Positions 36,001 through 39,000 of a DNA stretch of 64,000 nt are shown here, piece after piece. Position numbers: made by a program. Where the stretch lies: NCBI RefSeq assembly GCF_053078305.1, contig NZ_CP166879.1. One strand, given 5' to 3'. Positions within the stretch are counted from its first letter, which is position 1, and the number at the start of each line of letters is the position of its first letter.

Positions 36001-39000
36001 CGGCGCATTTTCAAAAAAGTCTGGACGTCCTGTTACTCCAGAGTTTTTATTGGTACGGGGCGTATAGTTCCATGTTGGCAGGCCTCTGCTATTGCCTGAG
36101 CGTCGTCATAATCATTTTTCTGGCGTCGCTGATAAGCTTTAACATGTTGCGCCGGAAGAAATATTACATCATGGTCGAGTTTCCTGATTTCCCTGGCCCA
36201 GTGATGGGATGCCCGCGAGCCTCCATCGCAACAGTCATTTTGGGCTGTTGCACCAGCCAGTTAAGCAGTTGATTGCGAGAAAGTTTGATCCTTCCTGCGG
36301 GTTTGCCATGAGCATTGATACTGAAAAGATAAAAGTTCGTTTTAGCCAGATCGATGCCGGTGATTTTCTGTTGAGACATGGTATCCCTCTTACTTTTGTG
36401 GTTAAAGTTTATCCATCATGACGTAATTAAAGGTTGTCGTGAAGGAGGGGGAAGACCATCTCATCGCTTACTGATGTTCCTGTTACTATATCTATTGAAT
36501 CCTGGCTATAAGTTCGCTGTTTAAAGAATTATATGAATAGCACCAATTAATAAGTTAATATTAAAAAGAAGACAGACCTTCTAAATAAACGCATTGAATC
36601 TATGTTCCCTTGTGAGTGTTTTTACGTTTGGCGGGAGGCCTGGAACCTCGGGATTTAACTTTTCTTTTTATATTTTTGATAAAATCATCAATAGAAAACT
36701 GAATCGTCTCTGATAAATACTGTTGAGCTATATCTGTACTCTGTTTTTCTAAATCAGAAGCTTTCTTTGTTTCAAGAACAGATTTGATTAACTCCTTACG
36801 TTGTGTACACCAAATCTCGTCAGATGAACAGTATTTTTTATTTTCGTGTTTGTTCATTATTTATTGCTCTAACTGATTTATTTCCCTATATCCAGGGAGT
36901 AGATATATCTACTCCCTGCTTATTATCATTTCACGTTAGTTAAAGATTTTTTTATATTCTCAAATTTGGCTTGGTTGATATCACTGATCGGTTTTTGACT
37001 TGACGTGATGAAGTCAATCATAACAGCCTTCATATTCTTAACTACATCAGGATGGGATGCAGAGAGATCTTTAGTTTGTTGCAGATCGTTGATATCGTAC
37101 AGAGCTAGTTTATTCTCTGCATAGGTGTAAACCAGAGAATAATCGTTGCTTCTTACAGTGTATGCAAACTGGCTTAAGTCTTCTGTATGTGGGTTGTGCG
37201 GATAATCATCAGACTCTTTTCTCACGAATTTATGATATCCGTTCCAGAATGCAGTGTTCTCTTCGTCCCACCAGTGAGAATAAGAGGTAATCCAGGACAG
37301 ATATTTGTGAGGTTCGCCAGCTGCAGATTTCTTATCAGCTCCTTTCTGTACATATGGCAATAATGATACACCATCCAGTTTCAGAGAAGCAGGGATCTTG
37401 ATATCTGCGGCATCTAAAGCGGTCGGATAGAAGTCCATTGATGAAACCAGTTTGTCATAATCACCCGTTTTCAGCTTGCCATTCCACCACATGAACATAG
37501 GTGTATGCATACCACCCGGATACGGTTGGCCTTTGTAACCAGCCTGCGCACCATTCAGTGGCAGTGGACCATCAATTACAGCACCGTTATCAGAGGTGAA
37601 CAGAATGATGGTGTTGTCGTACTGACCTTTTTCCTTAAGTGTATTCAGGATCTTTTTAACCCCCTGGTCAACGGAGTAAATTGACGCATAATAGTTATCA
37701 GCAGTCTTGCTACCAGTGTTGAATTTCTCCTGATAGTTTTTAGGCGCAGGCTGATCGTTAGGCAGGTGTGGTGCACTGTATGCCAGATAAATCATAAATG
37801 GCTGTTCCAGTTTGCTTGCACGGTCAATTACACCAATTGCTTCATCAGTTAATTGATCACTAATGTACCCTTCAGCTTTAATGTTTTCACGGTTACGGAA
37901 CAATGACGGGGAGTTATAAAGTGAAACGCCGGATGCGTGATAGCCCATGAAGTAGTTGAAGCCACGATTCTGAGGTTGCCATTCTTCTGCGGAGAAGGTG
38001 GTGAAGTTATCGTGGTAGTCACGGGTTTGTTTTTCTTCAGGCACACCTACGTTGCTGATTTTTGATAAGTGCCACTTACCGATTGCTGCAGTGTAATAAC
38101 CATGATTCTGAAGTAATTCAGACAGGAATGTTTCTTCCAGAGGGATACCATCCTGTGCATCAGAATTTGAATATACACCGAAGCGAGCAGGAGCTCGCGC
38201 CGTCAGGATTGCGGCACGTGAAGGGCCAGAGACACCGTGTGCAACATAGCCGTTAGTGAATTTTACACCTTCGTCCATCAGGGCCGCTAATGTTGGAGTG
38301 GATTTTTTTGCAGCTTCAATTGCTTTATCAATACCTATTTTGTATGTATCAACAACATTTCGGTTATCCATCGTTTTAGGGTCAAATGAACTATCATCAA
38401 AAGGCAATTGTCCATACCCTAAATCATCCATTGTTAAAACAATGATATTTGGCTTACCTTTAGTGCTGTATTCCGTCGGCGTGAAGTCCGCAAAGGCAAC
38501 ATTGGTTTTTGTTGCTTTGAGCTTAACATCATCTGCTGCATTTGCAGTACTCATCATCAGACCAGATGCTAATATAAGTGATATTGATGAGTTAAGCAGT
38601 TTTTTATTTAACTGATGTTCCATATGGTATTCCTTCTGAGTTGCATCACGAACATTTATTAATAATAAAAGCCTCTGATATAAATAAAAACTATGTAAAT
38701 CGTTTAAATGGATACCTGTTAAAACTGATACATCATACCAACAGCAAGTATATTATCGGTTGCAACTCCAGCCTTTTTGGTAAATTCGCTTTCATCAATA
38801 AGGTTAATTTTGTAATCAATAAGAAGTGACATGTTTTTGTTCAGAAAGTAGTTTGCGCCAACATCAATATACTCAACAAGAGACTGATCGCCATAGTTTA
38901 CTATTCCACCTTTAACATCCATCCCTTTGGACTGAACGTAAGCCAGTGAAGGACGCAGGCCGAAATCAAACATATACTGAGCCACAACTTCAATATTCCG

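Follow-up and report, generated by a model that had tools for sequence, protein, structure and literature searches.

The Klebsiella arylsulfatase AtsA is an exported serine-type S1 sulfatase in which a cytoplasmic anSME must oxidize the serine (PMC7771511, PMC2996862). In Escherichia coli, the putative periplasmic Ser-type sulfatase YdeN (b1498) and the anaerobic sulfatase maturase YdeM (b1497) are encoded in the core ydeO-ydeN-ydeM locus, and ydeNM is co-transcribed and expressed in gut-like/anaerobic conditions (PMC10878103, PMC3936929, PMC10653809). The anSMEs bind their substrates mainly via the peptide backbone, and a single enzyme can serve many sulfatases; Bacteroides thetaiotaomicron, with one unlinked anSME for many sulfatases, is a precedent for dependence in trans (PMC7771511). 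A sulfatase gene also lies in the published LAA (Locus of Adhesion and Autoaggregation) pathogenicity island, which comprises iha, btuB, sulfatase, porin, and Ag43 and has a tRNA-Phe insertion site. Papers on this island list a GALNS-like sulfatase beside a porin, without analysis, and the gene carries the annotation "sulfatase family protein."

We analyzed such a gene in a window of 64 kb (the whole stretch of 64,000 nucleotides). The open reading frame (36926-38623, minus strand) encodes 565 aa and specifies the same protein as RefSeq WP_000401034.1, with 2 synonymous changes only. The Pfam search showed that a full-length sulfatase catalytic domain is present, with PF00884 (Sulfatase) matched over profile positions 1-301 of 301 (E = 1.9e-65; 221.6 bits, cut-off 25), and also gave a weak secondary match to Phosphodiest. 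The closest solved structures were the SulfAtlas S1_19 iota-/kappa-carrageenan galactose-4-sulfatases (PDB 9hh2/9hh3, 6b0j, and 6bia; E = 1e-56 to 1e-49), which align with residues 109-429, active-site motifs included. In the phmmer alignment (E about 1e-56), the segment ahgvSgpsraailtar of the island sulfatase pairs residue by residue with ahpfCgpsrsailtgr in chain 9hh3. Since Ser132 (codon TCT; 38228-38230, minus strand) is aligned to the Cys of C-G-P-S-R in 9hh3, it stands at the formylglycine position as the predicted formylglycine precursor, and S132-G-P-S-R136 carries the (C/S)-x-(P/A)-x-R signature. The metal-binding and catalytic residues in the S1_19 alignment are also kept (D66/D67, R136, K183/H185, H286, D345/N346, and K364). 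While the S1_19 structures are Cys-type, the island sulfatase is Ser-type, and the YdeN family differs in an additional stretch of about 30 residues (79-108) and in its C-terminus, which is longer.

The Ser motif was found in all of the 120 closest homologues (64-100% identity) and a Cys in none, so the motif is not a chance pattern. At the N-terminus, MEHQLNKKLLNSSISLILASGLMMSTANA|ADD reads by eye from the translation as a Sec-like signal peptide of residues 1-29 with an ANA|AD cleavage motif (38537-38623, minus strand). The island sulfatase is thus classed, on its predicted export, as an intact, exported serine-type sulfatase. The first-pass annotation had placed a serine (SGPSR) at the formylglycine position, which was correct, and had called the enzyme secreted, with which the predicted signal peptide agrees.

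Compared by sequence, the island sulfatase is a second, divergent version of YdeN from the E. coli core genome, a kinship that had not been recognized in the first-pass annotation. It shares 77.5% identity with K-12 YdeN across its full length, has the same signal-peptide architecture, and shares the S-G-P-S-R motif with its surrounding residues, the maturase-recognition segment being nearly alike in the two proteins (GYVAHGVSGPSRAAILTARAPARFG in the island sulfatase and GYVAHGVSGPSRAAIMTGRAPARFG in YdeN). The YdeN orthologues from E. coli, Yersinia, Salmonella, Aeromonas, and Vibrio are 64-78% identical to it, and the H-G-V-S-G-P-S-R motif, present in 120 of 120 homologues, places the protein in the YdeN family. 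The nucleotide identity between the island gene and ydeN is only 72%, with a dN of 0.15 and a saturated dS. Because of this low identity and the saturated synonymous sites, the island copy represents an old, foreign lineage and no recent duplicate. The homologue searches returned no sulfatase between 100% and 78% identity and no porin, for the gene next to the sulfatase, between 99% and 66%; given these gaps, the donor of the island module is unsampled.

We then compared the operon layout across the family. For this sampling, a single-protein search of genome contigs gave the Budvicia locus only, and eight further contexts were included. In all nine other lineages examined, ydeM lay directly 3' of the sulfatase gene, behind a short stem-loop spacer; a sulfatase paired with a YdeM orthologue was seen in K-12, Salmonella, Proteus-group mobile elements, Yersinia pestis, Budvicia, Aeromonas, Vibrio, and Anaerobiospirillum, and the YdeM orthologues adjoining the relatives' sulfatases were 52-67% identical to K-12 YdeM. 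Since all 120 homologues are Ser-type and all nine lineages have a YdeM orthologue, YdeM-type enzymes are co-conserved partners of this exact Ser motif. The first-pass annotation had assumed that the maturase gene is usually adjacent; this does not hold as a general rule, as B. thetaiotaomicron shows (PMC7771511), and it holds strictly for the YdeN family. Thus, while an unlinked maturase is the norm in Bacteroides, linkage is the norm in the YdeN family, and the island copy is the exception: it is the only examined family member without a linked ydeM. It differs from YdeN in lying behind a porin gene in a mobile island/plasmid module. It also differs from AtsA, an arylsulfatase set apart by its description as a different S1 lineage, for which atsB is kept in the operon; cytoplasmic oxidation of the serine would apply to the exported island enzyme by analogy. 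The missing ydeM is a trait of operon organization and not of the protein, and membership in the YdeN protein family therefore stands.

The island copy has kept the stem-loop. A perfect hairpin with an 11-bp stem (36893-36918, minus strand) lies 8 nt past the sulfatase stop codon, at the site of the relatives' ydeN-ydeM intercistronic stem-loop. Its folding energy is -20.2 kcal/mol (z = -5.0), and the spacers of four relatives fold at -18.7 to -24.8 kcal/mol; the Rfam search for a known RNA element between the genes gave no match at E up to 0.1. Beyond the hairpin, at the place of ydeM in the relatives, is the 85-aa reading frame noted in the first-pass annotation (ORF85; 36600-36857, minus strand; 34% GC; WP_001032733.1, hypothetical protein). 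The Pfam and NCBIfam searches assigned it no family, and among 1.84 billion representatives the only matches were ORF85 itself, truncated copies, and low-complexity noise, and we rejected membership in a known family. It is absent from all of the relatives' sulfatase loci and has no clear Shine-Dalgarno sequence. It shows no tblastn similarity to ydeM, so we rejected it as a ydeM remnant. ORF85 is probably not a conserved gene, as judged from these searches. A non-coding tail (36432-36599) ends the module. The similarity common to all E. coli contexts stops at 36432, the window position that corresponds to query position 33, where the non-LAA matches begin. Different IS elements abut the tail (IS1 in the plasmid, and the btuB side in classical LAA); in the island variant analyzed here, one intact IS110-family transposase gene and IS110-like fragments, identified from ORFs and the colinear genome annotation, abut it (34399-36379, minus strand).

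An OmpC-family porin gene (38719-39854, minus strand) precedes the sulfatase gene by 95 nt in the same orientation; it was assigned by Porin_1, with the OmpC/PhoE/OmpF models below their cut-offs. The loss of 1 nt near 39676, seen as a 1-nt gap against two other copies (L001 and L011), shifts its reading frame in the window, and in other strains the allele is intact (378 aa). A dedicated porin-sulfatase partnership in the E. coli module is unsupported, because the closest relatives of this porin (64-66% identity) are prophage-borne, tail-region genes with no sulfatase nearby. About 2% of complete E. coli genomes (about 111 genomes) carry the porin-sulfatase-ORF85 module, in plasmids and in islands like LAA of LEE-negative STEC, and IS elements flank it in every context inspected. 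The window is 98-99.6% identical from 22158 to 42918 to an island adjoining cadC in strain 2012EL-2448 and diverges past 42918; no tRNA gene was found in the 64 kb. Where iha-btuB adjoins the module in the classical O113:H21 and O91 islands (cf. PMC6920203), this variant has a heme receptor and IS110. An AraC-family regulator (42001-42741, plus strand) is 39% identical to K-12 YdeO (E = 1e-57 over 231 aa); among the NCBIfam models, YdeO fits it best, at 175.9 bits against a cut-off of 348 bits that it does not reach. In the E. coli core genome, ydeO is the neighbor of ydeN.

The search for a linked maturase gave a uniform result. K-12 YdeM found nothing below E = 1 in a tblastn search of the window, and no stop-free stretch of at least 120 aa in any of its six frames contained CxxxCxxC, which rules out a hidden maturase there; no radical-SAM gene lies in the 36.9 kb on one side of the sulfatase gene or in the 25.4 kb on the other. 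Nor is a maturase annotated in the 20 kb flanking each side of the module in the complete genome that is colinear with window positions 22158-42918, or in the 9 kb to each side of it in the plasmid context, and none was ever found beside the module in the contexts inspected. The first-pass annotation had reported the window to be devoid of a maturase gene and had pointed to its immediate surroundings as a place where one might lie; the former agrees with our searches, and the latter yielded nothing.

On the other hand, the host chromosome does encode candidate enzymes. In the island-bearing STEC 2012EL-2448, ydeN-ydeM and aslB are annotated as intact, with no pseudogene flag; ydeM is complete (1158 nt), and its product scores 499.5 bits against the "anaerobic sulfatase maturase" equivalog TIGR03942 (cut-off 349.45). 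The pair of alternatives offered in the first-pass annotation, a maturase elsewhere or an inactive enzyme, was the right one. A query joining the island sulfatase to K-12 ydeM matched 5346 of 5426 complete E. coli genomes, nearly all through ydeM alone, and among the matches listed, the second match was ydeM in 47 of 47 island-bearing chromosomes. Since about 98.5% of E. coli have ydeM anyway, this co-occurrence carries no statistical weight, and we rejected it as evidence of dependence on ydeM.

We favor, with moderate confidence, the explanation that the island sulfatase is an acquired second YdeN-type enzyme, cut from its own ydeM and matured in trans by the host. In its favor are the close kinship with YdeN and the nearly alike maturase-recognition segments, the co-conserved YdeM partners, the complete maturase genes of the host, the backbone-based substrate binding of anSMEs, the functional look of the enzyme, and the expression of ydeNM in gut-like/anaerobic conditions. 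The ancestral unit of the family would have been sulfatase, stem-loop, and ydeM. A second periplasmic Ser-type copy would have been acquired horizontally and severed just past the stem-loop, with the loss of its own ydeM as the consequence, and the sulfatase would now travel as a passenger of the IS-flanked porin-sulfatase-ORF85 module in STEC islands and plasmids. The pre-protein would be synthesized in the cytoplasm, where a host radical-SAM anSME would oxidize Ser132 of S-G-P-S-R to formylglycine before export by the Sec system; in the periplasm, the enzyme may then strip sulfate from a small sulfated carbohydrate entering via a porin. The maturase is most likely YdeM, the partner of the 77.5%-identical YdeN, with AslB as the alternative, and we infer the trans maturation, the acting maturase, and the substrate class. 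To our knowledge, there is no experimental evidence of YdeM or AslB forming formylglycine in any E. coli sulfatase, which counts against maturation in trans. Klebsiella AtsA reportedly requires co-expressed AtsB to be active in E. coli, and deletions of aslB and ydeM are said to have left sulfatase maturation unchanged; these reports suggest that the maturases encoded on the E. coli chromosome stay silent or are ineffective in laboratory culture.

The serious rival to trans maturation, possible but somewhat doubtful in our judgment, is that the sulfatase is an unmatured, inactive, decaying passenger gene, which lost its function on separation from ydeM and persists by hitch-hiking in a young, IS-rich island segment. 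The solitary loss of ydeM, the IS elements around the module in every inspected context, and the reported failure of laboratory E. coli to mature Ser-type sulfatases without AtsB all fit this explanation, as do the decaying surroundings, which count against trans maturation: the porin is frameshifted in the window, and the sulfatase gene of O91 RM7190 has an 11-bp deletion. However, the island sulfatase looks functional from its catalytic residues, which are all present, its dN of 0.15 with saturated dS relative to YdeN, and the differences between island alleles, which are mostly synonymous (5 synonymous and 2 non-synonymous); a full-length 565-aa product is annotated in most of the roughly 111 module-carrying genomes, and the host has two complete anSME genes. 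Selection since the loss of ydeM is not measurable, because the island copies are at least 99% identical to each other.

It is also conceivable, and in our view quite improbable, that unmodified Ser132 acts as the nucleophile in the manner of alkaline phosphatase, giving a weak sulfatase or a promiscuous phosphatase/phosphodiesterase activity. Sulfatase activity without formylglycine is expected to be much lower, and the full S-x-P-x-R signature together with the strict co-conservation of ydeM shows that the normal chemistry of the family needs the modification. The weak Phosphodiest match would be consistent with a formylglycine-independent enzyme, as would the Ser-type S1 sulfatase F1-ORF13, reported to be active when produced in E. 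coli, and in vitro as well, with no obvious maturase (PMC8379841), and the characterized unmodified choline sulfatase (PMC6189696). Still less credible, and highly improbable, is a dedicated maturase encoded close by, whether immediately beyond the window edge or in the form of a non-canonical protein (ORF85, for example). ORF85 does sit at the maturase position with no assigned function, but it contains two Cys residues and no Fe-S motif, in addition to lacking homologues and a clear ribosome-binding site, and the window flanks and annotated surroundings searched above hold neither a YdeM homologue nor an annotated maturase.

The finding is real yet fairly ordinary and is no pointer to new biochemistry. 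What is new is the divergent second ydeN, its position as the sole examined family member without the otherwise always-linked maturase, and the likely replacement on the host chromosome. The island sulfatase thereby lends itself, as a clean natural experiment, to asking whether YdeM or AslB of E. coli works as a Ser-type maturase, and an active enzyme may be relevant to the use of sulfated host glycans by LEE-negative STEC. As a tentative and rather unlikely extension, the sulfatase would be functional and reliant on core YdeM, having shed its own maturase, with its activity gated by the switching on of host ydeNM (anaerobiosis and AraC control); it would then open a second periplasmic route, different in specificity, for desulfating sugars of host origin (for example, mucin or amino-sugar sulfates) that aids gut colonization by LEE-negative STEC. 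We also observed that a porin gene neighbors ydeN repeatedly (E. coli, Aeromonas, and Vibrio), the porins being unrelated to one another, and that the Vibrio ydeN locus is surrounded by nanE, nagA, ROK-kinase, and sodium:solute symporter genes. If gating by core YdeM were true, the porin-ydeN neighborhoods and the Vibrio nanE/nagA context would point to a combined unit of porin and sulfatase that serves the uptake of sulfated amino sugars or sialic acids.

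The 565-residue open reading frame at 36926-38623 on the minus strand (the island sulfatase; RefSeq WP_000401034.1) matched the whole PF00884 (Sulfatase) profile (E = 1.9e-65) and scored far under the cut-off of each named NCBIfam sulfatase equivalog. Its nearest solved structures were SulfAtlas S1_19 carbohydrate sulfatases (E = 1e-56 to 1e-49), comprising 9hh2/9hh3 and the iota-carrageenan sulfatases 6b0j and 6bia. Using the wild-type chain 9hh3, we found that 'AHGVSGPSRAAILTAR' of the island sulfatase aligned onto 'AHPFCGPSRSAILTGR', and Ser132 (codon TCT, 38228-38230, minus strand) is therefore the formylglycine position, which bears out the serine that the first-pass annotation had assigned to this site. 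The residues D66/D67, R136, K183/H185, H286, D345/N346 and K364, conserved in the S1_19 alignment, are also present. The N-terminus starts out basic, continues into a hydrophobic core and carries ANA|AD, and so reads as a predicted Sec signal peptide. Every sequence feature tested for an S1 formylglycine-dependent sulfatase and for the YdeN family was found, the sole exception being operon organisation: linked ydeM, the gene for the anaerobic sulfatase maturase (anSME), is absent.

In the database search, the island sulfatase fell in its own cluster of 99-100% identity, restricted to E. coli and followed by a gap. The next matches were E. coli core YdeN at 77-78% identity, and orthologues of 64-75% identity were found in Yersinia, Salmonella, Citrobacter, Leminorella, Budvicia, Proteus, Aeromonas, Vibrio and Anaerobiospirillum. 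All 120 best matches carried S-G-P-S-R, with cysteine in none of the 120, and the entire family is therefore Ser-type. Compared with K-12 YdeN over the full length, the protein was 77.5% identical (72% at the nucleotide level), with dN = 0.15 and saturated synonymous sites. These comparisons identify the island gene as a second, foreign ydeN copy. It belongs to an old separate lineage that purifying selection has maintained over a long time and did not arise by recent duplication.

In K-12, ydeM (annotated 'putative anaerobic sulfatase maturation enzyme') lies 51 nt downstream of ydeN. The same pairing was found in a Salmonella island, Yersinia pestis and Budvicia aquatica, in two different contexts on Proteus-group integrative elements, and in Aeromonas veronii, Vibrio alginolyticus and Anaerobiospirillum metagenome contigs, with spacers of 42-222 nt across the relatives. 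A YdeM orthologue (52-67% identity by tblastn) directly followed the sulfatase in each relatives' locus; the maturase accompanies the YdeN-family sulfatase even on mobile elements. In every lineage examined, the ydeN-ydeM spacer also held a stable stem-loop just past the sulfatase stop codon, conserved in structure but not in sequence. It followed the stop in comparison loci L002, L003, L004 (a Proteus-group element), L007, L013, L014, L016 (Vibrio alginolyticus) and L018, and in the window at 36893-36918, where a perfect 11-bp stem gave -20.2 kcal/mol and z = -5.0. Four relatives' spacers were folded (-18.7 to -24.8 kcal/mol, z-scores -3.1 to -5.4), and the others were judged by eye. The stem-loop, of which no mention was found in the literature searched, may control the sulfatase:maturase ratio as an attenuator or a stabiliser.

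After the island hairpin, the window has ORF85 (36600-36857, minus strand) instead of ydeM. A tblastn search with K-12 YdeM found no homologue in the 64-kb window at E < 1, and the radical-SAM motif CxxxCxxC was absent from all stop-free stretches of at least 120 aa in all frames, the window reaching 36.9 kb beyond the island sulfatase on one side and 25.4 kb on the other. Both results uphold the earlier claim that no maturase gene is present in the window. The 85-residue frame had been called unexplained, and this stands: ORF85 had no Pfam or NCBIfam match, was not found at any relatives' locus examined and, among 1.84 billion representative proteins, matched only itself, truncated self-copies and low-complexity noise. 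With 34% GC and no clear Shine-Dalgarno sequence, it is most reasonably taken as an ORFan, doubtful as a real gene, on the DNA that replaced ydeM. A second PF00884 protein at 52739-54241 on the plus strand (500 aa, domain residues 193-446) was CptA/EptA-like, well under cut-offs; since this phosphoethanolamine-transferase branch uses no formylglycine, the protein does not count as another orphan sulfatase.

Window positions 22158-42918 were 98-99.6% identical to the island beside cadC in STEC 2012EL-2448. The module of porin gene, sulfatase and ORF85 adjoins iha and btuB in O113:H21 and O91 strains, which is the published LAA island arrangement of LEE-negative STEC, where the genes are simply named 'N-acetylgalactosamine sulfatase' and 'putative porin' (PMC6920203, PMC6174562). 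Of 5426 complete E. coli genomes, about 111 carried the module, a figure that takes in at least 13 plasmids, on which it adjoins a SPATE protease gene and IS1. The similarity common to the E. coli contexts stopped at window position 36432, where a different IS abuts in each, and no maturase gene was found in any module context inspected; the loss of ydeM therefore preceded the spread of the module within E. coli.

Host maturase genes are complete. The annotation of 2012EL-2448 shows core ydeN-ydeM complete at 4858890-4861781, some 2.1 Mb away from the island, and likewise aslB, which encodes a second anSME homologue and lies about 0.4 Mb from the island. YdeM of this strain scored 499.5 bits against the TIGR03942 'anaerobic sulfatase maturase' equivalog (cut-off 349.45). 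A joint query of the island sulfatase and K-12 ydeM matched 5346 of 5426 genomes, and the second match place was ydeM in 47 of 47 island-bearing chromosomes among the matches listed; since almost every E. coli has ydeM, this co-occurrence is statistically uninformative. The predicted anSME recognition segment of the island sulfatase differed from that of YdeN only by M to L and G to A, both downstream of S-G-P-S-R. Contacts between anSME and substrate are mostly via the backbone, and one anSME serves all sulfatases of Bacteroides thetaiotaomicron (PMC7771511). It was reported that ydeN and ydeM are co-transcribed and that AraC targets ydeN directly (PMC10878103), that O157 cells cultured anaerobically in rumen fluid contained YdeN protein (PMC3936929), and that ydeN was induced in an anaerobic dye experiment (PMC10653809).

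We consider it moderately probable that the island gene encodes a functional periplasmic Ser-type carbohydrate sulfatase matured at Ser132 by host YdeM (or AslB), which would convert the serine in the cytoplasm before Sec export of the enzyme to the periplasm. Maturation in trans, as we infer it, would use the working principle of Klebsiella AtsA/AtsB, with an unlinked maturase as for Bacteroides sulfatases. On sequence grounds, the island sulfatase is a new, divergent YdeN-family member whose gene setting is unusual; it does not represent a novel type of system. It is chiefly useful as a natural test case for Ser-type maturase activity of E. coli YdeM and AslB. In work by Szameit (1999) and Benjdia (2007), laboratory E. 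coli reportedly left the Klebsiella Ser-type AtsA unmatured without AtsB, and aslB and ydeM deletions are said to have had no effect on sulfatase maturation; these results count against trans maturation by host YdeM or AslB.

The main rival, that the island sulfatase is an unmatured relic, we regard as rather unlikely, with the complete host maturase genes on one side and, on the other, a decaying module neighbourhood that weighs against the functional reading. The OmpC-family porin gene (38719-39854, minus strand) lacks one T of TCTTGG near 39676, and this 1-nt deletion splits it into 78-aa and 256-aa frames in the window; the comparison alleles in 2012EL-2448 and O113:H21 FWSEC0010 are intact (378 aa), and the deletion either marks a strain-specific pseudogene or reflects an error in sequencing. 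The sulfatase gene of O91 RM7190 (locus L012, 3527-5213) has an 11-bp deletion at gene nucleotides 432-442 and is annotated frameshifted, so the island sulfatase is decaying in at least this lineage. The island sulfatase alleles, with at most 5 synonymous and 2 non-synonymous changes, are too alike to gauge selection since the loss of ydeM. Activity independent of formylglycine has precedents (PMC8379841, PMC6189696); we consider such activity quite improbable. That a hidden local maturase serves the enzyme is hardly credible. ORF85 occupies the place of ydeM, but nothing suggests a maturation role for it.

The substrate may be a small sulfated sugar, for which there are three faint indications. 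The structures nearest the island sulfatase act on galactose-4-sulfate in carrageenan (PMC5066984), and YdeN was likened to GlcNAc-6-O-sulfatase in a published note (PMC10878103). The porin-ydeN-ydeM genes of Vibrio alginolyticus (L016, 1-11155) lie inside a sialic-acid/amino-sugar catabolic cluster with nagA, nanE, a ROK kinase, a sodium:solute symporter, a DUF386 gene and a second ROK gene, a context that hints at a sulfated amino sugar or sialic acid as the substrate of the YdeN family. A porin gene is upstream of the sulfatase in E. coli, Aeromonas and Vibrio; the Aeromonas and Vibrio porins are not orthologous to the island porin (32% and 23% identity), whose nearest relatives (64-66% identity) are E. 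coli lambdoid prophage porins (L020-L023), encoded between minor-tail and tail-L genes. The porin-sulfatase association may be functional or accidental.

The window also encodes a type I secretion system with a large Ig-like protein, a YadA-like adhesin, a heme receptor and a SPATE autotransporter, and no tRNA gene was found in it. Its right end (57319-63101), with a tyrosine integrase (57319-58503, minus strand), a P-loop ParA/tyrosine-kinase-like gene and a 510-aa DnaB-like helicase, resembles the DnaB-ParB-integrase backbone flanking ydeN-ydeM on the Proteus-group integrative elements L004 and L005. The island AraC-family regulator at 42001-42741 (plus strand) shared 39% identity with K-12 YdeO (E = 1e-57), and among NCBIfam models the YdeO one fitted it best, with a score below the cut-off. 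Because ydeO lies beside ydeN in the core genome, the island mirrors the core neighbourhood of ydeO, ydeN and ydeM. The regulator may also engage in cross-talk with YdeO and with the control of acid resistance. In STEC 2012EL-2448, core ydeO is annotated partial (L009, 12184-12846), with safA and ydeP missing between ydeO and ydeQ, and the island regulator might compensate for this damaged ydeO.
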